Positions 18,429 to 55,423 of a stretch of DNA of 64,000 nucleotides are shown piece by piece. Each line of letters starts with the position of its first letter. Position 1 is the stretch's first letter. The notes beneath the pieces are model-generated. The model saw nothing but the letters and a program-made list of their open reading frames with translations. It was not told where the DNA came from and searched no databases. Both the position numbers and the translations under genes were made by a program. The DNA is from Dictyostelium fasciculatum. Lineage: Eukaryota. The DNA lies in contig NW_004457624.1 of NCBI RefSeq assembly GCF_000203815.1, positions 3,122,354-3,186,353 on the forward strand, given 5' to 3'.

Positions 18429-21101
18429 ATGAATAACGACACATCAAATACAACAAATAAAATGTCACCTCTTAAAAGTTCAAGTGATCTATCACAAATG
18501 ATAGACCCAGAATATTTTAAAAGAGAAAATGATAAAAAGATTATTGATCAACCAATTAATAGTAATAATAATAATAATAATAATAGTCAATCAAGTTTAC
18601 CTCCTTCATCTTTATCTCAACAACAACAATCAATATCAACACCAACAAAGAATAATAATAGTAGTACTAGTACTAGTACTAGTCAATCAATACAATCATC
18701 ACCAATGAATACAAGTTCATTACAAAATATGAATGCAAATGTCATACAATCATCATTTGATGCACACATTCAAGAACAAACATTTCAAACATCCTCCCCA
18801 ACAAGAAAAAGAATTGTTAGATTTACAGATCCCTCACCAGTTTCATCTCCTCAACCTAGTCAAAGAGAACAAAGAGAACATCAACCTCTTAGACAATCAT
18901 TTACACAAAATGAATCATTGGATATTTTTGGTAGTTTAGATTTTAGTCAAACTTTTGAACAACCAGATAGTCAAGAAATTGCACCAATATCATTTACTCT
19001 AAGTACTGATGGTGATTTAATCTTTACTTTGGACGACGAGGAAGAAGAAGAATCTATTAAAGAATCGATTCAATTTGATTTTGACATTTATCAATCAATG
19101 TCATTACCAATATGGGATGCAGTAACCAGTCAAGATCCAAAGATGGTAATGAAAAGAGGAGGAAAGATCAAGAGAAAGAGAGGGTTGGTCATACCCAATT
19201 GGAAAAAGAAGCAACCAGAAGTGACGATTGACGACTTGATGAAACAAAACTATCTAAAGATTGGTGATCGTCTAACGTATAGTATTGCCGGTTCAACACA
19301 TACTGCCATTCTATTGGCTGACGGTTACATTGAATATGGTAGTGGTAATGAATTACGTATTCGTCTCCCATCTGTTCATGCTTGGATCATTCAAATCCTA
19401 TCCAAACTAACACCAAACAAAAAATATCATTGGTTTTCTCCATGGGATTCAATTTTCATTAAAGGAAAATCTTTAAATTATATTAGAAAATCTTTTGAAT
19501 CTAAAAATAGAAAAGAAATTAATAATAATAATGATGAAAAAGTAATTATTAAAACAAATATTACAAAAAAGAAAAGAGAAGAAGAAGAAGAAGAAGAAGA
19601 AATAGAATCTCAACAAATCAAGAAAAAGGTAAAACCTACAATTGTTGAATTTAAACAACCTCTACCAATTCAACCACAACCTTCATTGATTGATCAAGAT
19701 GCAACACAAAAAGTAGATGAAGAGTCAACCATCAAAGTAGATGAAGAAGCAACAATCAAAGTAGATCAAGAACCAATTGTAGATGAAGAAGCAACTATTA
19801 AAGTTTATGATGAATTTGATCCAAAAACTCAACTATTAAATTCTACAACTACAATTAATTTAAATCAAGTTGATTTTAATTCTCAAGAAATGGAAATTGA
19901 AAAGGAAAATGAAAATGAAAAAGAAAAAGAACCATCACAAAAATCATCTCAATCAAGTCATCATTCTTCTTCTTCTTCTTCTTCTTTATCTTTTCCAAAT
20001 TTCAATTCAACCTCTCAACCAACAAATAATCAACATCAAAATAATAATAATAATAATAATTTATTTTCTTCACAACCACTTCCATCCAAAGGAGGTCATA
20101 TTGGATCACCATTAAAATATAATACTCCAATTTCATCTCAACCACCACCTTCACAATCAAAGAATAATGTATTATCAACATCAATTCAATTTGAAACATC
20201 TCAACAATTTTCACAACAACCAAAAGAATCATCAATTAGTTTACCATTACATCAACCATCACTTAAATCAAATAATTCAAATGTTTCAGAACAACAAAAA
20301 ATAAGTCAAACATTTTCAATTCCAGATTTATCTCAACAACAACCAAGTCAATTATTTTCAATACCAGGATATCAAATTGAATCTACTACTGGACCAGTAA
20401 TATTAGGAACAGGATTATCAAGATTAATGCAAATTCATATAATTACATTAACCAATTCAATAGGAGGTAGATATGTAACTAGTTTTGATCAATCTGTTAC
20501 ACATATTGTATGTGCAACTGAAGAACAAGGACAAATGGCCAAAAGAACCATTAAATATCAAATGGGAGTAGCCAAGGGACTTTGGATTGTGTCATTTGAT
20601 TGGATTTTAGAATCACTCAATGAACAAAAATGGCTAGACGAAGATGCCTATGAAATACAAGGTGATGAACAATCTGGTATTCAAGGATCACCAAACAAGG
20701 CACGCCAACAATTATTATTCTCTGAAAAACGTCTCTTTTATGGTTTGGCGTTTTATTTGGCAGGTGAATTTGATCAACCTAGTCGTCAAGAAATTGAATC
20801 GGTCATCAAAGAGGCAGGTGGTATAGTATTGGATGCACCACCACCAAAACCATCAAATACCAAAGAATTATTAAAATCAAAATGTACAGTCATTGTTCAT
20901 CCATCATATACCTCTTCTCATCAACAACTGTCACAAATTCACCTAACCACCAAACAATTACCAATTAGTTATAAATGGATTTTTGATTCAATTTCAAATT
21001 ATCAATTAATTCCAAAAGATAAATATTTAATCTTTAAAAGTAGTACTATAAATCAATCAAACTATGGTTCAATTCATACTCAACAATCTCATGCATACTA
21101 A
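18429..21101 (+). CDS. BRCT-domain protein (tandem C-terminal BRCT repeats), long N/S/Q-rich N-terminus, single exon
   Basis: ORF of 890 aa. Its C-terminus has two BRCT-like units (…FDQSVTHIVCATEEQGQMAKRTIKYQMGVAKGLWIVSFDWILESL… and …LFYGLAFYLAGEFDQPSRQEIESVIKEAGGIVLD…CTVIVHP…). Confidence 0.55.
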   Translation: MNNDTSNTTNKMSPLKSSSDLSQMIDPEYFKRENDKKIIDQPINSNNNNNNNSQSSLPPSSLSQQQQSISTPTKNNNSSTSTSTSQSIQSSPMNTSSLQNMNANVIQSSFDAHIQEQTFQTSSPTRKRIVRFTDPSPVSSPQPSQREQREHQPLRQSFTQNESLDIFGSLDFSQTFEQPDSQEIAPISFTLSTDGDLIFTLDDEEEEESIKESIQFDFDIYQSMSLPIWDAVTSQDPKMVMKRGGKIKRKRGLVIPNWKKKQPEVTIDDLMKQNYLKIGDRLTYSIAGSTHTAILLADGYIEYGSGNELRIRLPSVHAWIIQILSKLTPNKKYHWFSPWDSIFIKGKSLNYIRKSFESKNRKEINNNNDEKVIIKTNITKKKREEEEEEEEIESQQIKKKVKPTIVEFKQPLPIQPQPSLIDQDATQKVDEESTIKVDEEATIKVDQEPIVDEEATIKVYDEFDPKTQLLNSTTTINLNQVDFNSQEMEIEKENENEKEKEPSQKSSQSSHHSSSSSSSLSFPNFNSTSQPTNNQHQNNNNNNNLFSSQPLPSKGGHIGSPLKYNTPISSQPPPSQSKNNVLSTSIQFETSQQFSQQPKESSISLPLHQPSLKSNNSNVSEQQKISQTFSIPDLSQQQPSQLFSIPGYQIESTTGPVILGTGLSRLMQIHIITLTNSIGGRYVTSFDQSVTHIVCATEEQGQMAKRTIKYQMGVAKGLWIVSFDWILESLNEQKWLDEDAYEIQGDEQSGIQGSPNKARQQLLFSEKRLFYGLAFYLAGEFDQPSRQEIESVIKEAGGIVLDAPPPKPSNTKELLKSKCTVIVHPSYTSSHQQLSQIHLTTKQLPISYKWIFDSISNYQLIPKDKYLIFKSSTINQSNYGSIHTQQSHAY

Positions 21102-32072: not shown

Positions 32073-33890
32073 ATGTTGGGATTAAGATCAGTACTTAGAA
32101 ATCATTCTAGCACCAACATTTTAATGTTGAGTGCAAGATCATCACAATCATCATTATTATCTCAATCATCATCGTCATTTAGATATTATGGTAGTAAGAA
32201 AAAAGAACCATCACAAGAAGAGGTAGATGATAAAAAGGATGCAGCATTTATCGCAGCCAAATTAGATGGAGCATTCCCAGCGGGCAACTACAACTCTTTC
32301 TACCCAGGCGACCCACAACGCAAGGTGGTAGAGACACAGTTTTCAGAGGACGGTCTCAACACGTTTAGAACACGTATGGAGTTGCTCAAGAATATAAACA
32401 ATGCCGAGCACCAACACGGCTTGGATAACCGTGACTACAACATTGCCAACTTTTTGTCGATGGACGACGACGACACCAAGGCCGACATTAAGCGTGAGCA
32501 GGCAGCTCGCGAGGCAGTCGAGTCACGACAAGACGACGTCGAGCAGGCCAAGTTGGACGCCGACATTGATCGTCTCAGAGCCGAGGAAGGCGCCGGTATG
32601 AACTTGGAGGCCTTTTCCAACCTCATCACACGTTACGACGACGCACACCGTCAAGAGCGTGTCGACATGCAAAAAGAGAAGCGTCGCGATCAAGAGGAAC
32701 TCGAGGCACTCGACCAAGAGATAGAGGACGACCTCCAGACGGACGAGTTCCGCGCACAGTTTGCCGAACGTGGTTACGTCGGCGAAGAGGGTGAGCCCGA
32801 CAAGGACGACGACGACAGAGATGACGACGATGGACTCGTCGACGAAGACGAGGGTCAAGAAGGTGAAGACGGCCAAGACGACGACGAAGACGGTGCACCA
32901 GCCGCCCACGTTGAAGAGGAAGCCGATCAATACGGCATGGAAGCGATCTATGGAACAACACGTTTCGCCAACTCGATTGACATTTCGCCGTTTGAGGAGA
33001 AAGGCGAGTTTGACCAAGCCACAGACTTGCTCAACGAAGAGATTGAGCAAACCGACGTCGTCTACACACCACGTGTGCTCACCAAGCGTCGTTTGATGCG
33101 TGTGGGACAACACACCCGTGTCACCAAGGGTGGTCGTATCAACTCGTACTCGGCGCTCGTGCTCGTCGGAAACGGACTTGGTTCGGGAGGTATCGGTTAC
33201 GGCAAGGGTGAGTCTGTGTCGGTCGCTTTGAAGCGTGCCGGCAGAGACGCCGAGCGTAAGGCATTTACACTCCACCTCTTCCAAAACCGCATCGTCCCAA
33301 CCGGTCTCGACCTCCAGTACCGTAGCACCAAGATCAGATTCTACCGTGCCGGTAAGGGTCGGTCGGTCATTGGTATGATCGGTCACAAGCAACGTTTCAT
33401 CAACGGTATGTTTGGTATCCGCGGTGTCAATTACCGTACCTATGGTCGTCGTGGATGGCGTGCTATCCTCAACGTCTTCCAGTACGCCCTACCCGACAGT
33501 TGGATCAACCCCGACGAGCTCTCCACCGTCCTCGGTAAAAAGTTTGTCACTCGTGAAACCCTCCAAGAAAAGAAGCTTTCATTGGCCAACATGTTGACAT
33601 CACGTATTCCCAACAAGGAATCAGACCCATACAACTATGGCATCATTGGCAAGTTCCTCACCGATCTCGAACAACCCAAGGACAAATCCAACGAAGAATT
33701 TGACAACATGTACAACTCTATAAAGGAAATGCTCAAATCTGAAACCTCTATCAATGCCTCTTTCCGTCGTGTCGCTCGTGACCCTGAATCAAGTCAAAAA
33801 CTTGCCATCGATCCAATGAACAAATGGAAACGTTCAAAATATTTGGCTTCAAAAAAATTAGAACAATCAAGATTAAATAATCATTTTTAA
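32073..33890 (+). CDS. Mitochondrial ribosomal protein uS5 (S5) with an N-terminal presequence and a long acidic insertion, single exon
   Basis: ORF of 605 aa. The S5 N-terminal dsRBD-like motif is present (…RVTKGGRINSYSALVLVGNGLGSGGIGYGKGESVSVALKRAGRDAERKA…). The start MLGLRSVLRNHSS… is Arg/Ser-rich and looks like an import signal. The middle of the gene (32270..33560) is strongly GC3-rich (GAC/GAG/GTC codons). Confidence 0.65.
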   Translation: MLGLRSVLRNHSSTNILMLSARSSQSSLLSQSSSSFRYYGSKKKEPSQEEVDDKKDAAFIAAKLDGAFPAGNYNSFYPGDPQRKVVETQFSEDGLNTFRTRMELLKNINNAEHQHGLDNRDYNIANFLSMDDDDTKADIKREQAAREAVESRQDDVEQAKLDADIDRLRAEEGAGMNLEAFSNLITRYDDAHRQERVDMQKEKRRDQEELEALDQEIEDDLQTDEFRAQFAERGYVGEEGEPDKDDDDRDDDDGLVDEDEGQEGEDGQDDDEDGAPAAHVEEEADQYGMEAIYGTTRFANSIDISPFEEKGEFDQATDLLNEEIEQTDVVYTPRVLTKRRLMRVGQHTRVTKGGRINSYSALVLVGNGLGSGGIGYGKGESVSVALKRAGRDAERKAFTLHLFQNRIVPTGLDLQYRSTKIRFYRAGKGRSVIGMIGHKQRFINGMFGIRGVNYRTYGRRGWRAILNVFQYALPDSWINPDELSTVLGKKFVTRETLQEKKLSLANMLTSRIPNKESDPYNYGIIGKFLTDLEQPKDKSNEEFDNMYNSIKEMLKSETSINASFRRVARDPESSQKLAIDPMNKWKRSKYLASKKLEQSRLNNHF

Positions 33891-34323
33891 AAAACAAAAA
33901 AAAAAAAGTATATTAAAATAAAAATAAAAATAAAAAATAAATTAAAAAAAAAATTAAAAAAAAAATTAAAAAAAAACAAAAAAAAAAAGGAAAATGATGA
34001 GCGAAAGAGAGAGGAGAGAGGAGATGGGTGTATTTTTTTTTCTTTTACAAGTTATATTTCAAACAAAGATTAAGTAAGTACTTTTAAACAACTAAAAGTT
34101 ATTATTAATAATTAATTGTTATTATCTTTAGATCTTTTCAAAATCTATAGATAATGAATGGGTTTAGTTTGGGAAAAGCCAATCAAAAAAAAACCTAAAC
34201 CCAAAATTGGAGAATCAATGTCAACCAATATGATGATGGAATTGGGTCTACCCTTTTTTAAACCTTTAAATAGATCTGAAACCACAATCAAAACTGATCA
34301 TAATATTTTTAATCAATATATAA

Positions 34324-35900
34324 ATGAAATTAAATAATCTACTTTTATTATTAAATTTTTTTTTGGTTATAGTTAATATAATCAATACATTTGATAGTAA
34401 TCAAGATGTAAGAGATGGTATACTTCCATATATTTGGGTACATTCAGAGGGACAAAAGGAATTTTCTCATGGTCAATATGGTATGTACATATCTTTAATT
34501 TATTAATTATATTTTTTATCTCTTTTTTTTTTTATTTTTTTAGCATTTGCAATTTATGGAAAATTGGGAGGATTAGATGTATTAAAAGGGGTTGATTTAA
34601 AAAACAAGGATCCAAAGACTAGTTTTACTGTTTGCGATGCTGGCAATTCAAGATATTTTGAAAAAGTTCATACATTGGACAAAAACAATTTTAATATTGA
34701 AAGATTGCCAGATACCAAAGCTACCACTGCTGCACCTACCATTGCGTTACAGACAATGAGCGAATTATTCAAATCACCCTTTCATTCTGAAAGTATGATT
34801 ATCAAATCATTGTTTTATTTCACACACCCTGCTCACCCAGTCCCCGCCCTGTCACCACAACCCATTCGGTACCTCTACTCTCAGTATCAATAGTATTGCC
34901 AGTGATAGAGTTCGTGCCAACAATATAAACGGACCAAAGGTTGAACCCTATCCAACGCCAGAACCAGATAGTGGTGATTCGGTTACCAACCTTTTGTATC
35001 CAACCGACCCAACAACACAACGTCTCTATGTCTTGTTTTCTAGACAATGGGATCTAGACTATTGCCATTATTTCAATGTCCGTCAACTCGCCGATACACC
35101 AGGTATCCAAGTAGTGTCGGCTGCCACCAATCGGGACAAGATTATTCAAGTTGGATTTCAATCACTACTCTTAATTGAGCTTTTAAGAATGTCAACTATC
35201 GACTTGTCACAACCAGATGGATCGAAAAAACAGGAAACATTTATTTTCCCTACCACCTCTGCTTCTCTAGATGACAATTGGAAGTATCTAATCGACCAAG
35301 CATTTGACTATTTCTCTGTCAATTTTGTTCAAAACTTTAGATCCTATGAAAATTGGAAGGAATTTCTTGATTCTAAAGGTTATCCAAAACAAATTCATCA
35401 AATTGTAAAAGGGCACTTGTAAAAACAAAGAGAGAAGATTGGTACGTTAAAAATCAAAATTTTAATATCATAACCATCTACTTGTAATATTTATATTTAT
35501 TCTTTCATTTATTAGTTTGTGGTCACAAAAGATTCAAAAGTTATATAGAGGAAGTAGGAAATTGATGGATTTTCAATTTACAATGATCCCAATTGACCCT
35601 CCTTTTAATATTCCCAAACCAACTTGCAAACCAGGTACCACAATCAAAGAGTTTCCTTGTGTTGACACACCAACAAACTTTGTTGAGACCTTCCCAAAGA
35701 ACAATGTGAAATTGTAGATGAATTCAAAGCTAAATGGATCAAAGTTTTAATTGAATCACCTGGTTCCGTCGCAACTACAATGACAATGACACCAATCCAA
35801 CAAACACAGTTTGTAACTGATATATCCAATGACTTTTCTACCAAATTTGAAAGTTTCTATTCAAACTCTGAAAAGAAAGTTCCTGTTTTATGTGCTACAA
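34324..35900 (+). pseudogene. Secreted-protein family 'S', copy A, decayed (at least three frame disruptions)
   Basis: Exon 1 gives MKLNNLLLLLNFFLVIVNIINT… with donor TATG|GTATGT at 34481. It is homologous to copies B and C over its whole length. The frame breaks at about 34885 (YSQYQ*, a deletion relative to C), at about 35420 (…VKGHL* against C's …VEKALVGTKREDW, indels) and in the last exon (35700, …NNVKL* with the homologous sequence continuing in another frame). Confidence 0.55.
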
Positions 35901-35989
35901 AACCTTTCTAACAAAACAAATAAATAGAGTTTTAATCAGATAATTATTAGTATTTGTTTTTTTTTTTTTTCACGTGAGCCATGGTGTGT

Positions 35990-36340
35990 ACACGACATTA
36001 TCAAGTATTACATCACATACTACAAGAGAATTCGATATCTAGATATCATCTACTTTAACCACATAGATTAACAACGATGACATTAATGGGGTTTGATAAG
36101 CCAATCACAAACCCAACCGAATAATTAATTAATGGGCATCATCCACAAAGAGATATGTGCATGTATGTTGGGTTGCTTTGAGCACGACAAGGTGGGCTGA
36201 TTCATGCAAGGCTATTCGAGTAAGACCCTCGATTCGGTGAAGACTCTTTTATTCTTTAAATAAAAGTGTCAACGTAGCAGCACCAATATCAAATCAACTT
36301 CAATCGATCAATCAATCAATCATAATAATAATTAGTAGTA
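35990..36340 (+). promoter_or_regulatory. Conserved upstream block of family 'S' (copies B and C). It contains a CCAAT-type core …ATTAATGGG(G)TTTGATAAGCCAATC…
   Basis: 35990..36340 aligns with 38130..38480 (about 85% identity; both GC-richer than the surrounding spacer). A shorter version sits upstream of copy A at about 34150..34200 (aatgggtttagtttgggaaaagccaatca). Confidence 0.4.
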
Positions 36341-36343
36341 ATA

Positions 36344-38061
36344 ATGAAATTATTTAATCATCAATTTAAAACAACAATTATCACATTGGTATTATTGTTG
36401 TTGGTGATATCTAATACGATCAATGCATTTGATAGCAATGAAAAAGTAAGAGATGATCTACATCCATACATTATGGCACATACAGAAGGAGTAAAGGACA
36501 TGCGACATGGTCAATATGGTATGTATAGTTTTTAGAAATTATATTATTATTATATTTATTATTAATGTATCATTTTTTTTTTTTAGCATTTGCATTTTAT
36601 GGTTCTTTGGGTGCACAGGGTGGTGCATTTCCATTGAATCGATTTAAAAGTTTAGATTTGACAACTCTAGGAACATCATATTATGTTTGTGATATCAACA
36701 ATTTTAGATATTTTAAACAAGAAGAAGAAATTACCGTAAAGAACCCTATCAATTATAAAATTGTACGACAAGTGACCAAAGCACCTCCTATAGTGGCTGC
36801 ACCCATCGCAGTGTTACAAACCATCTCTAAAATCACCACCTCACCTATCACTCGGAAAGTGTCATCATCAAATCGCTTGGTTATTTCAAAGATCCTCTTT
36901 ACTCCTTCCCCAAACTGGTATACCAACCCATTCGATACCTCTACACTCAGTATCATCCATGTTCTGTTTGTACAACCAAAATATTAAACAGCAGCTTTGT
37001 CAATGATATGATCAATGATAACATTCGAATTAGAAATTTAAATGGACGTGGAGCCATGTTAAAACCACTACCACCAACCACCCCCATCGCTTACAAGATA
37101 AACAGTGAAGAAACGGTCACCAACCTTTTATTGCCAAAAAATATAGAAAACGAACGTCTTTATCTATCGTTTTCTCGACAATGGGATATTGACTATTGCC
37201 ATTATATCAATATTCTCCAACTCAGTGCCCCTACTCGAGGTATCCAGGTAGTGTCGGCTGCCACTAATCGGTATGGTGATAGACACGTCGGATATCAATC
37301 GACACTGGTGACAGAACTAGAGAGAAGTTCAATGATCAACATAAGACGACCAGATGGATCTATAGTGTCTGAACTATTCACTTTTCCAACGACTTTTAAA
37401 TCCCGTGAATTCAACTGGCAGTATCTAATCAATCAGGCATTTGATTTTTTCATTACCAACAAAGTTGAAAACTTTAGATCATTTGAAAATTGGAAGATAT
37501 TTCTTGACTCTGCTGGATATCAAGATCCATTTCCTCAAATTGTAAAGAAAGCACTTATCAAAACACAGAAAGCAGATTGGTAAGAAATTTAAAAAAAAAA
37601 AAGATTAGAATATAAAGAATATTTTTTTTAACTCTCTCTTTTTTCATTTCTTTCAATTATTTAGTAAATGGTCACAAATGATTCAAAGAGTAAAAGGAAG
37701 TGGAAAACAATTGATGTTCCTTAAAGAAACAGTGATTCCAATTGACCCTCCTTTTGATGTTTCCGAGCCAACTTGCAAACCAAATGCCCCTTGGAAAATG
37801 TTTCCTTGTTTAAAGACACCACTACCAAACTTTGTAAAGGACCCCAACAATCCCACATTTGATTGTGACATTACCGCTCAATTCCGAGACCAGTGGAAAG
37901 AAGCTATCATCGAATCAGCTACACAAAATGGAAAGATACCACCAGCAGATCCAACAAAATTTATCGATGAAAAAACGGAAGAGTTCAAAGTAGGATTTCA
38001 ATCATTTTATTCAAATGATAAAAGAAATGGTGTCATTGAATGTGCTAAACTAAATAAATAA
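36344..38061 (+). pseudogene. Secreted-protein family 'S', copy B. A single 1-nt deletion near 36851 shifts the frame; this is either a very recent pseudogene or a sequence error. Exons: 36344..36518, 36587..37579, 37665..38061.
   Basis: B is near-identical to copy C. B has tcaccTATCACTCGG where C has tcaccCTATCACTCGG. After that point B reads …PITRKVSSSNRLVISKILFTPSPNWYTNPFDTSTLSIIHVLFVQPKY* and stops. Restoring one C rejoins the frame of ORF 37008..37583 (MINDNIRIRNLNGRGAML…). Donors are GTATGT at 36519 and GTAAGA at 37580; the acceptor is TATTTAG at 37664. Confidence 0.5.
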
Positions 38062-38487
38062 ATAAATAAATAATAAGAAATGAAATACCTAAATAAAAAA
38101 ATAAATATTAATTTTTTTAAAAAGAACTTTAAAAAGTCGTCATTTAAAAAATTGTGTTGTTGCACGACATTGTCAATAGTATTACACAAACACATACAAA
38201 TGAAGTGATAATAAGATATCTGGATATAATCTAAACCACATAGATTAATAACGATGACATTAATGGGTTTTGATAAGCCAATCGATTGTACAAGCCCAAC
38301 CTAATGCACAAAGAGATGCGTGTTGGGTTGGGTTGCTTTGAACACGACAGGTAGGCTGATTCGGGTAAGGCCTCACTCGATTCGGTGAAGACTCTCTTGT
38401 TCTTCTTTAAATAAAAGTGTCAACTCATCAGCAGTCTGCTCAAATCAACTTCAATCGATCAATCAAACAAATAATAATTATAGAATA

Positions 38488-40230
38488 ATGAAATTATTTA
38501 ATCATAAATTTAAAACAACAATTACTTTGATCACATTGGTATTATTGTTGTTGGTGATATCTAATACGATCAATGCATTTGATAGCAATGAAAAAGTAAG
38601 AAATGATCTACATAAATACATTATGGCACATACAGAAGGAGTAAAGGACATGCGACATGGTCAATATGGTATGTATATAGTATAGTAATATTCTATAGTT
38701 TTGAATTGTCATTATTATATCATTATTTATTAATAATGTATCATTTTTTTTAGCATTTGCATTTTATGGGTCTTTGGGTGCACAAGGTGGTGCATTTCCA
38801 TTGAATCGATTTACAAGTTTAGATTTGACAGCCCAAGGAACATCATATTATGTTTGTGATATCAACGATTTTAGATATTTTAAAGAAAAAGAGGAAATTA
38901 TAGTAAAGAACCCTATAAATTATAACATTATACGAGAGGAGACCAACCAACCTCCTATAGTGGCAGCACCCATCACAGTGTTACAAACCATGTCTAAACT
39001 CACCACCTCACCCTATCACTCGGAAAGTGTCATCATCAAATCACTAGGTTATTTCACAGATCCTAATTACCCCAAACCCAAACTGGTATACCAACCCATT
39101 CGATACCTCTACACTCAGTATCATCCATGTTCTGTTTGTACAACCAAAATAATGAACAGCAGCTTTGTCAATGATATGACCAATGATAACATTCGAATAA
39201 GAAATTTAAATGGACTTGGAGCTATGTTACCATCCACACCACCACCAACCACCCCCATCGCTTACAAGATAAACAGTGAAGAATCGGTCACCAACCTTTT
39301 ATTACCAAGTGATACATCAAAAGAACGTCTTTATCTATCGTTTTCTCGACAATGGGATATTGACTATTGCCACTATATCAACATTCGCAAACTTGCCGCT
39401 AAACCAGGTATCCAGGTAGTGTCGGCTGCTACTAATCGGTATGGTGATAGACACGTCGGATATCAATCGACACTAGTGACAGAACTAGAGAGAAGTTCAA
39501 TGATCGACACGAGACGACCAGATGGATCTATAGTATCTGAACTATTCACTTTTCCAACGACTTTTAAATCCCGTGAATCCAACTGGCAGTATCTAATCAA
39601 TCAGGCATTTGATTTTTTCATTGCCAACAAAGTTGAAAACTTTAGATCCTTTGAAAGTTGGAAGGCATTTCTTGACTCTGCTGGATATCAACAGCCATTT
39701 TATCAAATTGTAGAAAAGGCACTCGTCGGCACAAAAAGAGAAGATTGGTAAGTTGAAACTTCTAGGAGCATGTCAATCTTTAGAGTAAAAATTCTAAATC
39801 TTTTTTTTTTTTTTTTTTTTTTTTATCATCTACTATTAGTGATTGGTCACAAACCATTCAAAGAGTAAAAGGAGGCAAAGGATTAATGTTATTTAAAGAA
39901 ACAATGATTCCAATTGACCCTCCTTTTGATGTTTCCGAACCAACTTGCAAACCAAATGCCCCTTTGAAAAAGTTTCCTTGTTTAAAGACACCACTACCAA
40001 ACTTTGTAAAGGACCCCAACCCCATTCAGAAACCTGATTGTGTTATTACCAGTCAGTTCCGTGATCGATGGAACGAAGCTATCATCGAATCTGTTACACA
40101 AACAGGAAAACCAACCCCATCAACTCTGTTTATCGATGAAAAAACGGAAGAGTTCAAAGTAGGATTTAAATCATTTTATTCAAATGTTCAAAAAAATGTT
40201 GCTATTGATTGTGCTAAAAGAAATAGCTAA
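38488..40230 (+). CDS. Secreted-protein family 'S', copy C (intact; signal peptide; 3 exons: 38488..38668, 38754..39747, 39840..40230). Function unknown.
   Basis: MKLFNHKFKTTITLITLVLLLLVISNTINA… with donor TATG|GTATGT, and acceptor TTTTTAG|CATTTGC giving …AFYGSLGAQGGAFPLNRF…LYLSFSRQWDIDYCHYINIRKLAAKPGIQVVSAATNRYGDRHVGYQS…KREDC, with donor TG|GTAAGT. The acceptor TATTAG|T gives …DWSQTIQRVKGGKGLMLFKETMIPIDPPFDVSEPTCKPNAP…CAKRNS*. All junctions are frame-consistent. Confidence 0.65.
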
Positions 40231-41249
40231 AATAAAATTTATTAGACAAACTTATCAAAAAATATTAATAAATAAAATTAATTTTTCAGTGTAACTCTGC
40301 AGAGAATGCCTCTCCTCTCAATTGTAGAAATAATATTATACATATATTTTTCAACTCAAAAAAACAACAACAACAATTTAATAATATATTTAGAATAAAG
40401 TGTACTCCTTCCTCGGCATTGAAAGATGCAGTACGATGATTGCATTTCAAGGTCTAAAATTCAAATCAAAACAAAGTACTACTGGTGGATCGATACACAA
40501 CATCAACCCAACAACAGAAAAAAAATTAAAATAATTAAAGTAAATTATTTTTAGATTAAATATTAATATTTATTAATAGAATTATTCAAAGGTTTTTTTT
40601 TTGAATTTTTATTTACAAATATCACCAGTACATTTTAATTTTCTTAAATGTTTTGTTTTTCTGTCTGGTGCTGGAAGTTGATCTTTATCACTCTCGCTAA
40701 GCTTTTGATAAACTCGATGATATGATCTATAGTTTACTCATAGGTTAATTGTAAAAGGTTTTTTTGATAGAAAAAAACAATAAAACGTCATACCAATGGA
40801 AAAAAATGAAAGATTGTATATCTTGTGCCACATAAAGTTATCAATGTTCATCACTTTACAAATGTTCAAATATCCATTGCATTGTTTTTCATTGCCATCC
40901 AAAGATATTTTTCTGTGTAAATAAATAAGGGCGGAACTAAATCTTGCAATCTTTTAAATTGATCCAAATTATCATTGCTAAAAAAGGTTCCATCATTTTT
41001 TGACAAAAACTCTTTTACCTCTTCATCAGAGCTTTGTTTTAAAAGAATTGCAAGTTCTTTGATGGTTGATTGTTCAATTTCATTGTATCGATATTTTGGG
41101 TAAATGTATTGATATCTGAATATTGACGATCGTTACCAAAACCATTTCCAAAAGTAATAATGTCCTTGTGATCTTTTAAAAGATTCGCCAACACGATAAA
41201 CTTTTCAAGTGATCCATAATGACCAAAATGTAAATTCTTTTTTGGGTTG

Positions 41250-41581
41250 TGTAATAACTATATAGATACTTGGTAAATATATAATTAGTCAATGATATTT
41301 CATCTATTTATCAACATACTTAATCCTGGTGCCAAATATAGAAAGTATGCTGGATAAAATACTAACGCCTAAACTATTGTCGGTTAGGCGTCTCGAACAA
41401 CAAACTATAAAAGACCAATGAAATCAATAAACATTAATTCATCTTTTATTACTATAATTAATAATCATTTACAATCTAAAGTCATTATTACTATCTATAT
41501 ATTCATATATCTATATATTATTATTATTATATACCTCTCAAACTAATTATATATTTACCAAGCATCTATATAGTTATTACA
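41250..41581 (+). mobile_element. LTR-like or TIR-bearing repeat unit (332 bp) with a 19/20-bp terminal inverted repeat TGTAATAACTATATAGATAC…GCATCTATATAGTTATTACA; solo copy
   Basis: The termini are seen directly. The internal sequence is shared with 17392..17767 and with the arms of 48223..48405. There is an internal palindrome (acgcctaaactattgtcggttaggcgt). Confidence 0.6.
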
Positions 41582-41779
41582 TCCCTTATCTTTAACAAAT
41601 TTCTCTAAAAGTACATCTTGATATGAGCTTTGTTCATCTACTACAGCTTGATGTGTGATTTGTTCATCTACTTTTACATCTTTATCTTTTGTGTAGGTAA
41701 GCAATTTCAGAATAGACCACCTAAATAAATAAATAAATAAAATAAAAGTTATTATTTTAAATTTTTCGATTCAATATAG

Positions 41780-42500
41780 TTCTTTAAAAAGTTTGTATAT
41801 TTACAATTCTCCAAATTGGTAACAATTTCATAATATATTGATAATGAATGTTATCCTTGTCCCATTGTCTAGAGGAAAAAAATAAAAAAAAAAGTTAAGT
41901 TAGTTTTGGTTTGTTATTGAAAAATATATATATATAAAAACAATAATATCCTTCATACCTAGAAAATGCAAGAAAGAGCTGGTTATTATTTTCTTTGTTT
42001 AGGACTGGAATATTTCTAACGACAGAGTTACTCGATAGAGGTTCCCCAAGTTTTTTAGGATTCAATCGATGATCATTACCTTTTTCTAATGTTATTACGT
42101 CTTTATAGTTTGGGTTACCTTTTAGACCTTTGTTTTCTCTGTATTCTAAAGTGGCTGGTTCAGTAAGGTAAGTGATAGACACCTTGTAATCTAGTTCATA
42201 ATTACCAAACTCTTGTTTAAACTTTTCAAAGTCGGTATGTGTAGTGGCACAAATTCATCTTTGAGTTGTGGGTTCTTTAGAATCTTCCAATCCTTTTTAA
42301 CAATGGCTCTTCTTGTTTTCTCTTTTGATCAAATTCTTTTTTTTTATCTCTCTCGTCCATGAGTATCGCTCTATCTTCTCCTGGTTTGAGTTTTTTAAAG
42401 GTAATTTGGTATTCGTTATCTGTTTTGAAAAGGGAAAATCGGTTAATATCAAATTTGCAATGCGAGGTACAAAATTTATAAATTTTAAACATTCCATCAA
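41780..42500 (-). pseudogene. Secreted-protein family 'S', copy D: a divergent, inverted fragment that ends at the LTR-like element
   Basis: Minus-strand pieces give …CKFDINRFSLFKTDNEYQITFKK… (compare C: FPLNRFTSLDLT…YYVCDINDFRYFKEKEEI) and …NNQLFLAFSR|GTATGA…TCTAG|QWDKDNIHYQYIMKLLPIWRIVNIQTF* (compare C: RLYLSFSRQWDIDYCHYINI). It stops early, and the reading is followed at once by the repeat at 41250..41581. Confidence 0.45.
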
Positions 42501-43145
42501 TTTTTTTTTTGCATTATATCATTGTTGATGCTACTCACATAGAGACTACTAGCTAGCTTGGCAGTGCAGTGTTGACAAGGGAAAAATAGGAAAACAGGAA
42601 AATATCTTTGCCTTTCATTTGCGAGTTTACAGCATCACCATAATAACCTAGGTATTTCAATATTGTTGGTTCACTGTGGTAGGGAGTGCTTTTGAAATTG
42701 TTGATCACCATCTTTGGTTTGGCTTGATCTGTTTCACCAAATTGAAAAATATCCCTTTTTTTTCTTACTGGCTCTGAAATGACACCTTGATTTGAATCTT
42801 GTTGACTTGATTCTTGAATGTACTGTAGGCAAAGTCAAAACAGAAAATTGTGTAGATATTCGGATAGGAAAGGTTGGTAGTTTGGTGCAAAATTCAATCT
42901 CGTCTGGAATCTTACTCTCCTGCTTTTTCTTTTCCTCCACTTTTTGAACTGTAATCTCACTCTTTTCCTTTTTATTTTCCTCCTCTGTTTGAACTGGAAT
43001 CTTACTCTTCTCCTCTTCCTTCTTTTCCCCCTCTTTTTGAATACACACTAGGTTCTTGAAAGAGTTGATCAGAACTTTGTTGTCGATTGAATATTGATCA
43101 CCATGACCCACATTGGATAAAAAACAAACAAGAATCAACAAGGTA

Positions 43146-43324
43146 ACAAATTGGCAACAAATTGGCAACAAATTGGCAACAAATTGGCAACAAATTGGCA
43201 ACAAATTGGCAACAAATTGGCAACAAATTGGCAACAAATTGGCAACAAATTGGCAACAAATTGGCAACAAATTGGCAACAAATTGGCAACAAATTGGCAA
43301 CAAATTGGCAACAAATTGGCAACA
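43146..43324. repeat. 11-bp tandem repeat (AACAAATTGGC)n, about 16 copies, perfect
   Basis: Seen directly. It abuts the 3' end of tRNA-Thr (43329). Track ORFs 42734..43336, 43098..43485 and 43113..43405 are read-throughs of this array. Confidence 0.9.
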
Positions 43325-43328
43325 AGGA

Positions 43329-43401
43329 TGGCCCAAAGGAGATTCGAACTCCTGACCTTCGGTTTACAAGACCGACGCTCTGCCGCTAGAGCTATTGGGC
43401 C
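43329..43401 (-). tRNA. tRNA-Thr (anticodon UGU), 73 nt
   Basis: The reverse complement GGCCCAA-TA-GCTC-TAGCGGCA-GAGC-G-TCGGT-CTTGTAA-ACCGA-AGGTC-AGGAG-TTCGAAT-CTCCT-TTGGGCC-A is a perfect cloverleaf. Confidence 0.85.
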
Positions 43402-43526
43402 TTGAATTTGCGGTTTTTTGCCCTGTTTGGACCCTAATTTAACCCCACGGGCAAGTTTTTCAATATGGCAGAGCGAAAAGATCAAAAGGTCATATAATCA
43501 CTTTTTGATGCATTATGTCTCAATAT

Positions 43527-43572
43527 CCTTCGGTTTACAAGACCGACGCTCTGCCGCTAGAGCTATTGGGCC
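43527..43572 (-). pseudogene. tRNA-Thr 5'-half pseudocopy (acceptor through anticodon stem) with about 45 bp of duplicated upstream flank
   Basis: ccttcggtttacaagaccgacgctctgccgctagagctattgggcc is identical to 43356..43401. The following ttgaatttgcggttttttgccctgtttgg(a/t)ccctaatt is also duplicated (43402..43445 against 43573..43616). Confidence 0.7.
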
Positions 43573-45238
43573 TTGAATTTGCGGTTTTTTGCCCTGTTTG
43601 GTCCCTAATTTTTTCTTGGCCAAAAATTCCTTCCCCTATGGCATCATGAATAGATGTTTGGTTCATTTGGCTACTATTTTAATAGGAGCCTCCTCAATTT
43701 CAATTTTTTTTAAATTGTACATTCAAATATCAACCCTGTTCATTTGAATGTCTCGGTACGGAGACTTGTGACGACGATCCCCACTTCCGCGCCGTTGCAT
43801 AATAAATTAAATTTTTTCAGTGCACAGATTTCCAATTTAAGTAAAGTATCAAAAAGAAAATGAGAGATTAAAAGGAAAAGAAATGATGACACCAACAAAA
43901 AATCATGATAAATAATAATATTAACATCAACAAAAGTAAGAAAATAGATTTCATCCTTTCCTACAACCCTGCCACCTACATTTTAAAATCCTGCAAATGG
44001 AGTCATGAAGTTTGGATGGAAAAGATAAACAAGAAGAAAAGATAGTTTTTGATAACTCAATAGACCTAAATCTTTGGTACTTTCAGATAGAACTTGAAGT
44101 GGTTACAACAAACCATTTGTTCTGCTCTTAGCCACCCACTCACCAAATTATATGTCGACCTTTTTTTTTTTAAAAATAATATTAACCATTGACCACACTC
44201 ATACAATTTAAATAAAAAAAAACACTAGTGTAAAAAATCATTGGCAAATGAACAGACAGAGATCATCAAGTATTTAGTTTATTATAATATCAAAGACAAA
44301 AGATATTCAATCATGTTGTGAAGAAGAGATAAACAATATTGATTGATGTGAGAATAACATGAGAAAAAAGGAAAGGATATTGTAAAGTTAACGAGGTGGT
44401 GTTGGAAGTCATGACTGCAGCTATGATATCTAGTATATTTATAATTGATAATGACGTATGAACTTTGTTATTTTTATTCATTGATTGACTTTTAGCCTAA
44501 CAATTTATATCTTTCAAATAGTTTATACTTATGCTCAACCGCATCTCAACACCAAACTGAATATCCTATTCACCATAGTACACCAACATGTTGTAATATC
44601 TATTGCAATGATTTGTCATGGTTCAAAACCAAACTTTCATATCACCAACACAACATCCTCCTCTTACCTGCAATCATTGATTCACCTGTTGGCACATTGG
44701 ATAGGTTGGATGGATGAATTTTGGATAGAATGACCAGAGACTGCTGAAAGTTGGGATAGATTCTCTAAAGAAAATAAAATTGGAAAGAAGAAGAGAGATG
44801 GAATTGAAAGATAGAAATGTTAGCACTATACATAGATTGATGAAAAATAATTGTAGAGTGTTGGATGGATGACAATGATTTCGTCGACAACATACTGAAC
44901 AACATATTATAATTATAGGTAAATAGAATGATTTTAATTAATAATTTTTAATTTGATAAACTTACTACTACTTTATTTATAGTTTTAAAGCAACCATTAT
45001 TACTCTAAAAATCAAATCAAAAATCCAAAACTATATTAAATATTCCTATTTTAGAATTGGGGGTATTAGGTAATCATTTTAGAATAATACTTGGGGTTTT
45101 TGATTGATTTTAACAATGGTTTTAGAACTATAAATATTCTACTTTACTTTCTTTTAAATTCATCAATTCAACAAAAGTATACAAATAATATTATTACTAT
45201 TAAAAAAAAAAAAACATTTTATTCTTTTCAATTATAAT

Positions 45239-48222: not shown

Positions 48223-51200
48223 GTTAGATTCAGATTGTAAATTAAAGTACAGTTCAATGATTAGTCAATGATATTTCATCTATTTTATCCAGCATACTTT
48301 CTATATTTGGCACCAGGATTAAGTATGTTGATAATTAGATGAAATATCATTGACTAATCATTGAACTGTACTTTAATTTACAATCTGAATCTAACATTCT
48401 CCCTTCTTAAATTGTGACCGAGTCCCACGTACCACGCTTGTTGAGATGGTAGGAAAACCATGGTTGCAACACTTGGTCACTGCAACCTGGACTAAAAACC
48501 TTACCGGTGGATACAATGGCTAGGGATACTTGTTGAGTCTTTGATACGGCCCGGACGTGTTGTTGATTGACTAGATCGTTTGGCATCCATACTTCACAAT
48601 CGTTGATGTTAATGAGATATTCCGTTCTACTACGTCCATTTCCTTGATACTTGAATGTTCTCTTTGACTTGACGATAAACAGAGGTTTCAACCATGCTCT
48701 GCTTGTGATTACTCCAATACTATTGACTATATCTTTTGTTGGGGAATCATTGTTGTTTTGTTGTAATGATTGTATGATTCTAATTGAGTTCATTTCTTTC
48801 ATATTGAAATATTTAGTTGTAGTTGGGGAGGATAGTTGTTGTCTGTATTGATGTAATAATTCTTTAAAGTTGATTTTGGTATCGTCATAATTTATCTTTG
48901 AAATATTGTAATTGGTGATGACGATATCTTCTTTTTCTATAATTCGATTATTATCTTTATCCTGTAATTTACTCTTACCTTTACCTATACTCTCTTCTAC
49001 CTTTTTAAGAGTATCATTCAACACAACTCTTTGCTTGGTCCAGTCAGCCGTATTTGGGACGTCGTCATAGATGTCGCCTGGCGCCTGGCTCACTATTCCT
49101 TGGTCTCCACCGGTTACACCTTGTCCTTGCAATGTCGATTGAATCTTGTTTAAATCTTGATACAGAGTTCGATCGTCACCGACTCGTCCATCCAAATTGT
49201 CACGTGCACCTTGAGCTCCTTCCGTATGAACGGGATAACCTTGTACGTTCTCCGCACCTTCCGTATGAACGGGATAACCTTGTGCATTCTCAGCACCTTC
49301 CGTATGAACGGGATTTCCTTGTGCATTCTTAGCACCTTCCGTATGAACGGGATTGCTTGTAGCCAATAATGGTTTCAACGTTTTGATAAATCTAGGATTA
49401 ACCAATAAGTCCTTTGACGCCGAACCATCTGCTCCAGCCACATAATCTTTAACTTCGACATTTCCACGAGTGTCCACTCCATTTACCAACAAAGGACCAG
49501 AATAGATAGGTTCTGTCTTATTTATGTGTGTATCTCTGTCACGACGCACATAAACCAAATCACCCGATTTAATATTATTCTCTACCTTGTTGTGATCATA
49601 TTTTGCTTTGTTGATTGCGTTGCCTTCGTTAATTCTCTTTATAACTATGTCTCTTATTATCTCTTTCAATTTATGATTCTCTGTTATTTTGATGTCTGTG
49701 TTATCATTGAAGTTTGGTGTAAAAGTGTCTAGTAGATTAAGAGGAGATAAAGGATTTGATCCGAGATAAATAGTAAAAGGAGAATAAACAGTTGTTGAAT
49801 GTACTGTATTGTTGATAGCAAATTCGATATTATCAATGCACTCTGCCCATGATATTTTGTGATTCTCTGCACTACTTTGTAATAAATCTTTTCTAATGAT
49901 ATTTTCTATAGTTCTTATCATACGCTCTACTTGTCCATTACTCTGATGTTGTACATTGACTCTAATTTTTTAAATAATTTCGAGGTGAACTTCGAGTCAG
50001 AATCAGAGATGATCTGTTTTGGTAAACCATGCAGTTTGAATATCTCTCGATTGAATAGAGATATTACACCATGTGATTTAAGAGTAGTTGTGGTAGGTAT
50101 TAAACGATTCATTTTAGATAGCGCATCGACAACTACTAACAAAGCATTTACTGTTTTACCATGATATTTAGCATTAGGTAAACCAGTAATAACGTCTATA
50201 TGAACACGTTGAAAGCAATAATTAGGTGGTTGTAATGGTTGTAACAAACCGATACGTTTATCACGATGATCACTACCTCTTTTGCAAACGATACACTGAT
50301 TGCAATGGTCTAAAATCTCTTCACGCATACCCATCCAAAAGAACTTTGATTTGATGGCGTCCAATGTCTTCTTTGGGCTACTGTGACCAGCCCATACCGA
50401 GTCATGATATCTATACAATACTTGATTAATGATAGGTGCTATCCTTGGTACCACAATTTTACCAAGATGTCTGCGTAAACCAAATTGATCTACAATGTAA
50501 GTTGCACTACAAGGAGCAAGTGTCTTGTTACGGATTGCAATATTTTCTTCTTCATAACCATTAATCATTTCTTTCAATAAATTATCTTCTAGTGTTGGTG
50601 AAACAATTTGTGTAGTAAAGGTGTTGCGAGACAAACCGTCAGCGATGACATTGTCAGTACCTTTGATATGGAGTAACTTGGGTTGGAATCCACGGATGAC
50701 CTCCATCCAACGATTTAACCTTTGATTGATGCCGATCTTCATATTCTCGTTGATAAATGGTATATTTTTGTGATCCGTGAAAACTGTAATGTCACGACCA
50801 ACGAGATGGTAGTAATTTGTTTTCAAAATCCATGGTTCTTTCTTGTAATTCCTTATAGATGGTCTTGACATTGTAAAATGCATTTTTGTACGCCAGTACA
50901 AAACTTCGATTGTCATTATTTTCGTAAACACGACCAGCAATGATGGTGAAAGCATTTGTAAATGACGAGACCGTCCACTTGGTATCATAACGGAATTGTG
51001 TGAGAACACGGTTCATCACGGCAAGGTCAGTGGAATCGGATGCAAAGACGGTGAGGAACGCTTCTCTAAATGCATCCCAATGTTCGAATTCCAGATCTAC
51101 CGTATTCCTAAAGACAGATAGGAATCTAGCTGACATTTTCTCGACATACACTTGGATTTCCTATTAAATGTATAATAAATATATATTAATATTAATATAT

Positions 51201-51813: not shown

Positions 51814-54264
51814 TCAATTAAGTTTTCTTGGAGGAATTGGAGGACGAGTTTGAGGATTTGCATTTGGGGTGTGGATGGGAGATGTAATGGTATTGTCATA
51901 TATTTGAACCGAAGTGGTAGCAGGTGGTTGGGATGGGACAGTGCTCGGTTGGAGAATAGAACCAACTGCATCAATACCCTCTTGTTTATCATTATTATTA
52001 TTATTATTATTATTAATATCTATTTTAATATTATTTTGATTAATTTCATTGAATGCATTGATACCCTCTTGTTTATAAGCATTGTACATTTTTTTGTTGA
52101 AAAATTGAATACCAGTAGACAAGTTGGGGAATTTACCAAATAGTGTTTCACATACCCAAGTGAATGGTCTAAAATCACAATCTCCACAACATTCACAACA
52201 ACAACCACGATACATTCCATCTTTTTGTTTTTCTTTTGGTGCTATTGGTTGGAGATGAATAATTTTAACTTTTCTTTGATTTTGTTGATGTGTTGCATTG
52301 ATGATCAAACGACGACGCATTTCACTATTATTATTATTATTTATATTAATCTCTGGTTGAGAAAATCGTAACAGTGCATCTTTTAGATCCGGAAATTCTG
52401 GACTAGTAAAAGTCCAACCATTCATTCTTCCAATCCTCAATACTTTTTTAAGATCCTTTAATCTACGACCACTATCTTCATAACCAGCAGCAGCCACAAT
52501 CGTATCAATATGTGGACAATGAAAGAGGATAGCAAGGATTCCAGTGTTTTCCAAATGACCACCATCCGATAGGTATGTACCAACCAATTCCTTTGAATAG
52601 ATGGGGATACTAAACAAATGTCTAATATCTTGAATTAAACGCGGTACGATTGGGAGATTACCAAAATATCGATCAAAGGCCAGTGACAATGCAATCATGA
52701 CAACTGGTGAGAGGAAAATAGTCCATCCATAATCTGTAGCAGAATCGACAATCAATCCAATACTGACTAGGACGCTTGCAACAAAGTTGACGCCTATGTA
52801 TGTCAATGCATTTTTGAGAGTCCTTTCTTGCTGTGGACCCATCCAAGATCCCAAACTTAGATTGGTAATCTTTAGCTGACTTTCAGCGCTGCCAAACTGA
52901 TTTTTGTTTGGTGCAATGGCAGCTCCAGAATTGGCCATCAAATAGGGCATCGATATTTGATATGGCATTGGATGTATATTGGCAATGGTAGGTTCATTCA
53001 TGTTGATGGTAGAGTACCCGACATTGGAATTTGGAGGGTTAGCACCATTTTGACCAAGGGAATCAGATCTAGGTCCAAAATCACCAACAGAAATAATAAA
53101 ATGTGACGACAATTTGGATGATTGGACCCAGGCATTGGAGGATAAATTAGAGATATATCTATTCCTGTTTTTTAGAGAACTGACAAGTGGTGATACATTG
53201 GCGCCATAGAATGATTTGGTGATGGACACTCGATAGTACTTTGATAGGGCTCGATCATATACCAACGTGAGAAATGGATAAAGTACAATGAGACCGATAC
53301 TGATATAATAGAATATCAACCAGACGTCATGGTTGTAGGTTAATCGGTCATAAAGCAGAAAATTGTTGGGCGCATTTCCTTTTAATTTCCAACTGGTAAT
53401 AATTCCAACAAGAGAGATGACCCAAACCAGTCCAGCAAGTCGACTGAGTACCCCAGACTTTATGACTCCAAACAATTGGACGAGTTTTGAAACGATACTA
53501 AATCCCAATGCAAACGATTCGTCCACAACAATTGATAGTTTTTTAAATGCATCGGCCGACATGACAGATAGTGTGAGAAAACATTGAATAAACAATATTA
53601 TAAACAGTATCTTTAATGCATTTTTGATCCATAAAACGGAGGCATTTCTTTTAGAGTGGGGCTTTAATAAGAGAAGGATCTTTGAAGCTACCCAGAGGAT
53701 GGTGGCTGCTGCTCCAGAGATGATAATCGATATAAATGCCCAAAAAATTGGAATACTTTCAATAAAAAAAGTTAGACACTCTGTTGCAATGATGACAAAT
53801 GGAAACAGCTTCAAGATTGACGTGACCAAGGCAAATAATAGCAATGGTAAAAGCTTGACGAAAATGTCCAACAACCACCAACCACCTTCAAAATTGATGA
53901 GGTAACCAATATTGTTTTTAGAGGAACGTAGCTGATCATCCAACTTGGAGTAAGCACGCCATCTACCTAGGGGATCACTTTCTTGTGACATTATATAACA
54001 AAAACCACTACCAATATAGCCTCCACCAGATACACAAGAAAATACAAATCTTTTCTCTTTATAAATATTTAATAGACATAGACATTTTAAAACACCACTA
54101 CAAAATGATGCACTCCTAATTCCACCACCAGAAAATGCAATTCCAACTTCTTCTTTATCTGTCGAAAATATATTATTATCTATAATATTAAATATTTAAA
54201 ATAAATGTGTCAATAGATTTAGAAATATCATAAAACTATAATATTATTTTTTAATCTTACCCAT
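51814..54264 (-). CDS. Patatin/cPLA2-like phospholipase with a polytopic membrane region and a C-terminal Cys-cluster. Two exons: 54264..54261 (ATGG) and 54179..51814, about 788 aa.
   Basis: Micro-exon ATGG|GTAAGA; the acceptor TATTATAG|AT restores the frame. MDNNIFSTDKEEVGIAFSGGGIRSASF…(oxyanion GGGxR)…FSCVSGGGYIGSG (GxSxG nucleophile)…TYLSDGGHLENTGILAIL (catalytic DGG). There are many hydrophobic segments between the motifs. The C-terminal motif is GCCCECCGDCDF. Confidence 0.6.
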
Positions 54265-54832: not shown

Positions 54833-55423
54833 TTAATTATTAATTATTATTATATTATTTTGATTAATTTCATTGAAAGCATTGATACCCTCTTGTTTAT
54901 AAGCATTGTACATTTTTTTGTTGAAAAATTGAATACCAGTAGACAAGTTGGGGAATTTACCAAATAGTTTTTCACATACCCAAGTGAATGGCTTAAAATC
55001 ACAATCTCCACAACATTCACAACAACATCCACTATACATTCCATCATCTTGTTTTTCTTTTGGTTCTATTGGTTGGAGATGAATAATTTTGACGGTTCTT
55101 TCATTTTGTTGATGTGTTGCATTGATGATCAAATGACGACGCATTTGATTATTATTATTATTAATCCCTGGTTGAGAAAATTTGTCTAGTACAAATTTTA
55201 GATCGTTTGAATCTGGACTAGTAAAAGTCCAACCATTCATTCGTCCTATCTTTAATACTTTTTTAAGATCCTTTAATTTTCTACCACCATGATAATAAAT
55301 GGAAATAATTTTAATATTGACGTGACCAAGGCAAATAATATTAATATTAAAAGTTTGAATAAATCCAATATCATATACCAAAGGCAAAGGTCGATGAGGT
55401 GAGAATACCAAAAAGCTTAACAT
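54833..55423 (-). pseudogene. Rearranged partial duplicate of the phospholipase gene (copy of 52020..52480 fused to a copy of about 53790..53870)
   Basis: …GRKLKDLKKVLKIGRMNGWTFTSPDSNDLK…RRHLIINATHQQNERTVKIIHLQPIEPKEKQDDGMYSGCCCECCGDCDFKPFTWVCEKLFGKFPNLSTGIQFFNKKMYNAYKQEGINAFNEINQNNI is nearly identical to the C-terminus of 51814..53991. The upstream 60 bp (ttgacgtgaccaaggcaaataata) matches 53815..53850. Confidence 0.6.

Follow-up and report, generated by a model that had tools for sequence, protein, structure and literature searches.

Four related sequences, here designated copies A to D, lie within 8.5 kb of a 64,000-nucleotide stretch of contig NW_004457624.1 from the bacterivorous amoeba Cavenderia (formerly Dictyostelium) fasciculata, and their arrangement raises the question of what kind of protein they encode and which of them are still able to encode it. 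The whole stretch, with a GC content of ~32%, is referred to below as the window, and all positions are given relative to its first nucleotide. The answer favored here, with an estimated probability of about 0.8, is that the locus consists of a tandem array of three genes of the DAAD family (Dictyosteliid AID/APOBEC-like Deaminase), namely DFA_12259 (copy A), DFA_12260 (copy B) and DFA_12261 (copy C), together with an older inverted remnant (copy D), copy C encoding a predicted secreted deaminase. As judged from the reading frames, copy C is the only potentially active member at this locus. The cluster corresponds to already-described DAAD genes and does not represent a new family; both family and cluster having been published and curated, novelty is therefore low, and the additions made here are the detail of the locus and the correction of its annotation.

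Identity of the four copies

Searching the window by tblastn with copy C as query retrieved copy B (E=1e-170), copy A (E=1e-96) and, on the minus strand, copy D (E=3e-5), while a hidden Markov model (HMM) built from five family members matched at the positions of A, B, C and D and nowhere else in the 64 kb. Thus, the presence of four related copies, as proposed in an initial annotation of this DNA, is real and far beyond what chance would produce. Upon protein comparison, copy C was 100% identical to DFA_12261. Two GT-AG introns are found at identical positions in A, B and C, all of them beginning with GTA and finishing with TAG, and the GC content of these six shared introns ranges from 0.10 to 0.22, versus 0.24-0.39 for the exons. 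These common intron positions, together with the hydrophobic, signal-like segment present at each N-terminus, agree with the three-exon, signal-peptide organization formerly attributed to the three tandem copies. Sharing of sequence motifs had been extended to all four paralogs, but D lacks PIDPPF and TCKP and carries a degenerate version of LFLAFSRQWDKDNIHY.

Copy C matches the Pfam family PF18752 (DAAD) along residues 31-346 with E=4.9e-112 and 375 bits, the curated gathering score of this model being 25 bits, and PF18752 is matched by all five aligned family members. The view of the family as uncharacterized must consequently be abandoned, considering both this match and its description by Krishnan, Iyer, Holland, Boehm and Aravind (PNAS 2018; PMC5889660). 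No support was found either for the suggestion that it comprises secreted signaling or adhesion factors, and the HxE and PCxxC catalytic motifs had been overlooked. In D. fasciculatum, Tieghemostelium lacteum and Acytostelium, these authors describe secreted AID/APOBEC-like deaminases (AADs), which they assigned to AID/APOBEC by profile-profile and synapomorphy analysis. They report for these proteins a signal peptide, a C-terminal four-cysteine domain and a high sequence entropy, as well as independent lineage-specific expansions to 6-7 copies, with the D. fasciculatum paralogs placed in one genomic region, and they propose that the proteins serve immunity, as effectors to be delivered either to infected cells or to parasites and pathogens.

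When 1.84 billion representative proteins were searched exhaustively with phmmer, four relatives emerged, all of them from C. fasciculata (DFA_12260, DFA_12259, DFA_07865 and DFA_04020); the T. lacteum and Acytostelium DAADs named by Krishnan et al. were not reached by this search. The wider search for family members thus provided two intact paralogs unlinked to the cluster, DFA_07865 (512 amino acids, aa) and DFA_04020 (596 aa), and the copies counted, D included, amount to six, in agreement with the published 6-7. Word-indexed homolog searches, profiles included, returned DFA_12261 and DFA_12260 only, or nothing, low-complexity words having probably swamped the candidates. A pattern scan plus tblastn across 185,579 prokaryotic genomes, and likewise across metagenomes, detected no relatives.

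Copy C, an intact gene for a predicted secreted deaminase

Copy C (38488-40230, plus strand; exons 38488-38668, 38754-39747 and 39840-40230) displays an open reading frame of 521 codons across its three exons, and is therefore intact, as had been claimed. Its zinc-deaminase motifs are HSE at residues 149-151 (39017-39025) and PCSVC at residues 185-189 (39125-39139), the HxE-to-PCxxC spacing being 33 residues, and neither HSE nor PCxxC varies in the two other intact genes, DFA_07865 and DFA_04020. The N-terminus, along about residues 1-30, is signal-like and shows a basic n-region, a hydrophobic core (the hydrophobic stretch 6-33 ending ...TINA/FD) and a cleavage-like site at INA/F. The sole 19-mer of the protein with a Kyte-Doolittle score above 1.6 is the N-terminal one, and the segment is conserved among the three tandem copies and DFA_07865. 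The C-terminal domain is rich in cysteines (Cys392, 428, 439, 459 and 516), of which Cys392, 428, 439 and 516 are invariant across the five paralogs and Cys459 is found in four.

Function is proposed for copy C on the basis of its family assignment and of established deaminase chemistry. The N-terminal signal peptide would send the protein into the secretory pathway. The deaminase domain is predicted to bind zinc via His149, Cys186 and Cys189, with Glu151 as the proton shuttle, and may deaminate cytosine to uracil on single-stranded nucleic acid. Disulfides would probably stabilize the C-terminal domain, which has five conserved cysteines. Such an enzyme would likely behave as a mutagenic effector against non-self targets, be they prey, pathogens, viruses or competitors, and fast evolution (a ratio of nonsynonymous to synonymous divergence, dN/dS, of about 0.6) and gene turnover would follow from a conflict of this kind, as at APOBEC3 loci.

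Lesions in copies A and B

Copy A (34324-35911, plus strand; exons 34324-34480, 34544-35441 and 35516-35911) is a DAAD pseudogene. It keeps HSE at 34783-34791 and bears a 47-nt deletion at 34886/34887 that excises the codons for HPCSVCTTKIMNSSF, including the PCxxC zinc ligands, the junction exhibiting TCA microhomology as expected of a real deletion. Further deletions of 1 nt near 35407 and of 10 nt at 35688/35689 account, together with the former, for the at least three independent frame breaks previously noticed in this copy. Once frame-repaired, the translation of A still matches PF18752 with E=2.9e-77 and 260.8 bits and contains zero nonsense codons. At positions on which the remaining four members agree, A has 13 changes of its own, no more than the 17 private changes of the intact DFA_07865.

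Copy B (36344-38061, plus strand; exons 36344-36518, 36587-37579 and 37665-38061) is a DAAD gene with one frameshift, its spliced length of 1565 nt being 1 nt short of in-frame. The sequence reads CC at 36844-36845, versus CCC in C (39011-39013) and in A, and an ancestral CCC is also indicated by the codon usage of the other paralogs at this site (Ser/Thr-Pro-Tyr/Phe). The single C deletion earlier reported for this copy is thus borne out, although it had been placed at 36848-36853, off by 3-4 nt. Because the deletion precedes Tyr148-His149 by one codon, the catalytic HSE (codons at 36849-36857) and everything downstream, such as PCSVC at 36957-36971, are out of frame, and the shifted frame stops at 36985-36987. 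Rescue by splicing or by ribosomal frameshifting was considered and rejected, any frame-restoring intron either deleting HSE or leaving it out of frame, and the site not being a slippery sequence.

GenBank gene models and alternative readings of the cluster

The GenBank models of DFA_12259, DFA_12260 and DFA_12261 (33995-40440) are all mis-predicted, the lesions of A and B being masked by artificial introns or by shifted-frame translation. In the DFA_12260 model, ~40 residues across HSE are translated in the shifted frame (…SPITRKVSSSNRLV…) and 36966-37033 is removed as a 68-nt intron; because of this shifted frame over HSE and this pseudo-intron over PCSVC, the annotated protein is devoid of both catalytic motifs. 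In the DFA_12259 model, translation begins from an ATG further upstream, the signal peptide is lost and the lesions are bypassed. Regarding DFA_12261, the model carries a spurious 35-aa N-terminal extension, and the conserved C-terminus (…VGFKSFYSNVQKNVAIDCAKRNS) is replaced by unrelated sequence; in the rebuilt copy C this C-terminus aligns with those of A, B, DFA_07865 and DFA_04020. The three-exon, signal-peptide models of the initial annotation are better than the public ones.

Were the GenBank models right, A and B would be spliced around their lesions to produce secreted, catalytically dead DAAD-like proteins, possibly decoys, binders or regulators. It is true that, with GT-AG introns, the annotated DFA_12259 (450 aa) and DFA_12260 (498 aa) have open reading frames and that the rest of the A and B sequence is well conserved. 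Nonetheless, the additional intron of B shows an exon-like GC of 0.29, versus 0.10-0.22 in the six shared introns, and is homologous to coding sequence, PCSVC included, in C and in the unlinked paralogs. This aspect, together with the 40 wrong-frame residues across HSE in one model and the missing signal peptide in the other, makes the annotated introns look like gene-finder workarounds for frameshifts, and such an interpretation is hardly credible. More weight deserves the proposal that B is a working gene, the missing C being either an artifact of sequencing or assembly or a polymorphism of the strain, so that the cluster would contain two intact secreted deaminases. Apart from the lesion, the frame of B is maintained: when repaired it contains no stop codon, while it stayed open in 0.9% of simulations with 80 neutral substitutions, half of the B/C distance (P=0.009); six of the seven B/C indels, that is, all but the lesion itself, are multiples of three; and no change affects any family-invariant residue. 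The lesion is, moreover, located in a CCC homopolymer. On the contrary, a length error is atypical for a run of three bases, and private amino-acid changes number 25 in B versus 8 in C with A as outgroup (p=0.003), other outgroups disagreeing (13:6 with DFA_07865 and 8:15 with DFA_04020). Relaxed constraint in B was consequently rejected as a firm conclusion, since the relative-rate outcome varies with the outgroup. Exact-product look-ups found no independent copy of the B site, either in a second assembly or in a transcript. In general, a working copy B appears possible, albeit rather unlikely.

Several observations also weigh against the favored interpretation of the locus as a DAAD array with one predicted deaminase. 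The lesion of B affects a single base within a short homopolymer of one assembly, and may for this reason be an error, and the relative-rate tests for relaxed constraint conflict as described. AlphaFold models were poor, with predicted local distance difference test (pLDDT) values of 38.9 and 51.2 from alignments of 5-9 sequences, so few because the T. lacteum and Acytostelium DAADs were not reached. An hhalign comparison of the DAAD core with human AID, whose query sequence was verified against PDB, gave no signal (probability 0.3%), and a profile search of PDB sequences gave zero matches. Expression data were not found, DFA identifiers being absent from the paper texts and transcriptome supplements searched, and the literature search found no experimental study of any DAAD. 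It might then be argued that these are secreted proteins in which HxE/PCxxC is not a nucleic-acid deaminase site, acting instead as another zinc hydrolase or as signaling or adhesion factors, considering that DAAD could not be linked to AID/APOBEC by profile or structure in this analysis and that the HxE-to-PCxxC spacing of 33 residues somewhat exceeds that of classical APOBECs. However, Pfam curates DAAD as an AID/APOBEC-like deaminase, every intact member carries HSE and PCxxC unchanged, and the paralog DFA_04020 shows weak, sub-threshold matches to NAD1 (E=0.0047) and APOBEC_N (E=0.055) exactly over the HxE...PCxxC region. The assignment through profile-profile and synapomorphy analysis by Krishnan et al. 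(PMC5889660) points in the same direction, and a family other than deaminases is regarded as very improbable.

Divergence of the copies and timing of the lesions

Copies B and C had been considered to differ by very few changes, but they exhibit 83% amino-acid identity, ~160 substitutions and six in-frame indels, with synonymous divergence (dS) of 0.154, nonsynonymous divergence (dN) of 0.100 and an omega value of 0.64. At the nucleotide level they are 85-98% identical in exons, 58-69% in introns and 81% in a 370-bp upstream region. Copy A is more distant, sharing 49-53% identity with B and C at a dS of ~0.69. The duplicated unit of ~2.1 kb comprises the promoter and the three-exon gene. Its upstream part in B (35960-36343, plus strand) aligns at the above 81% identity with the promoter-like region of C (38120-38487, plus strand), and this conservation, being above that of the introns, suggests a shared promoter. 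The regions upstream of A (33990-34323), B and C have in common a GCCAATC motif and a TATA-like motif, CTTTAAATA(A/G)A, ~50-60 nt before the ATG.

With dS values of 0.15 for B/C and ~0.69 for A relative to B or C, the duplications are not very recent. The scenario of a very recent tandem duplication with rapid pseudogenization therefore stands as far as tandem paralogs and gene death are concerned, and fails as to the age of the duplications. Judged from these comparisons, the duplications look old and the inactivations of A and B recent, because both copies look constrained apart from their frame breaks, with the proviso that the lesion of B is possibly a sequencing error. The lesions of both copies fall on the catalytic centre, B having lost one base a single codon before HSE and A 47 nt that exactly cover the start of the PCxxC helix, while the remainder of each gene still looks selectively maintained. 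A reading in which this pattern results from very recent knockouts targeted to the catalytic centre is considered improbable; having two lesions at the catalytic core is suggestive, but the observation is post hoc and not statistically compelling.

Copy D and its flanks

Copy D (41790-42800, minus strand) is a decayed, inverted DAAD core, detected by tblastn, by the family HMM and by a stitched Pfam match. With C as query, tblastn matches on the minus strand span 42735-42500 and 41870-41790, and the frame-stitched translation matches PF18752 at profile positions 100-232 of 291 (E=4.8e-10, 40.2 bits). PYHSEP (HSE at 42678-42670) and FPCQHC (42580-42566) lie in different frames, further frameshifts at A/T runs and then stops follow, and LFLAFS and RQWDKDNIHY, together at about 41985-41830, are separated by a GT-AG intron-like gap. 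Only positions about 139-275 of the family HMM are matched, these including HSE, PCxxC and the degenerate LFLAFSRQWDKDNIHY, and D has neither signal peptide, nor N-terminal third, nor C-terminal domain. Copy D represents a core fragment that is old and broken at several points, and is the truly decayed copy of the cluster.

A 332-bp repeat element (41250-41581, unstranded) follows shortly downstream of the point where homology to D ceases to be detectable; its ends read TG...CA, and its terminal inverted repeats of 40 nt show 98% complementarity. The initial annotation had D inverted and truncated against a long terminal repeat (LTR)-like repeat; inversion and truncation hold, while the repeat in question is probably this element with inverted termini. 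A target-site duplication is not obvious. The terminus, along with ~40 nt of the interior, is found again on the minus strand at 17728-17767, where a tRNA-Ser gene lies ~300 bp away. The element looks like a small repeated mobile element, similar to either a miniature inverted-repeat transposable element (MITE) or a solo LTR. On its other side, D is bordered by a coding-like tandem repeat of 45 nt, by a perfect (AACAAATTGGC)x16.5 array and by a gene for tRNA-Thr. In the latter region (43145-43611), the 11-mer microsatellite AACAAATTGGC, with 16.5 copies and 100% matches, abuts tRNA-Thr(UGU) (43329-43401, minus strand), and part of this gene plus its flank is duplicated at 43527-43611, over 85 nt and with 99% identity.

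Comparison with known deaminase systems

The genes here analyzed belong to the same family as, and are almost certainly the same genes as, the DAADs of Krishnan et al. 2018, nothing being different in kind: they share the strong Pfam match, the predicted signal peptide, HxE/PCxxC, the Cys-rich C-terminal domain, the lineage-specific expansion and the clustering in D. fasciculatum. The portion of the main text searched mentions neither frameshifted or deleted copies in the cluster nor their masking in GenBank. SNADs resemble them in being predicted secreted deaminases with signal peptide, disulfide-stabilized additions, fast evolution and lineage-specific expansions (PMC5889660). However, Krishnan et al. 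establish no specific relationship, citing "extreme divergence", the C-terminal domain of DAADs is distinct, and no SNAD Pfam model was matched.

The mammalian APOBEC3 locus, an analogy taken from PMC5889660, likewise presents tandem cytidine deaminase paralogs subject to duplication, loss and rapid change. On the contrary, APOBEC3 proteins are intracellular, lack both signal peptide and C-terminal Cys domain, and have a proven antiviral deaminase activity on single-stranded DNA; no sequence or structural similarity between them and DAAD was detectable with the methods used here. Deaminase domains of bacterial polymorphic toxins are also exported against other cells and have been proposed as the source of eukaryotic AADs (PMC5889660). 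They differ in being C-terminal modules of large toxins with cognate immunity proteins, and the prokaryotic genomes and metagenomes scanned contained no DAAD relative.

Other features of the window

Beyond the cluster, consecutive open reading frames (ORFs) at 2679-7322 (plus strand) encode TIG and DUF4062 domains, followed by a weakly matching NACHT domain and by strong TPR repeats, and probably constitute a single gene of NLR/STAND-like type. This gene, at ~27 kb from the deaminase cluster, may encode a receptor of the innate-immunity type. Two tRNA-Ser(CGA) genes, at 9515-9598 (minus strand) and 18050-18133 (plus strand), are inverted, 8.5 kb apart and identical in Rfam score. An 890-aa ORF at 18429-21101 (plus strand) encodes both a RAMA domain (restriction-enzyme/adenine-methylase-associated) and two BRCT domains, which is not a usual combination in eukaryotic proteins. 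A 605-aa ORF at 32073-33890, whose GC of 46% is unusually high in a genome of about 32%, contains a Ribosomal_S5 N-terminal domain and is overlapped by a 289-aa antisense ORF.

On the distal side, adjacent ORFs at 48407-51009 (minus strand) with integrase zinc-binding, integrase core and reverse transcriptase-RNase H domains represent a Ty3/gypsy-type retroelement remnant, whose downstream ORF includes a 39-nt tandem repeat (49204-49353). A partial duplication relates 52012-52483 to 54836-55298, with 94% and 81% identity. The segment copied is the C-terminal portion of a multi-pass membrane ORF of 725 aa (51814-53991, minus strand) with a CCCECCGDC motif, and the copy lies in a 196-aa ORF at 54833-55423.

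Implications for the DAAD family

The public models DFA_12259, DFA_12260 and DFA_12261 hide lesions at the catalytic site and need correction. The copies suited to biochemical work are DFA_12261, as the 521-aa model, DFA_07865 and DFA_04020. If targeted knockouts at the catalytic centre of A and B were true, they could reflect selection to shut off costly, self-mutagenic or autotoxic secreted deaminases or, alternatively, strains that differ by presence/absence-type polymorphism in the manner of APOBEC3 loci; C. fasciculata would in that case have ~3 working DAAD genes rather than 6-7. In a wider context, secreted AID/APOBEC-like deaminases in a bacterivorous amoeba, an idea published in 2018, would offer the interesting prospect of exported mutagenic weapons or immune effectors.

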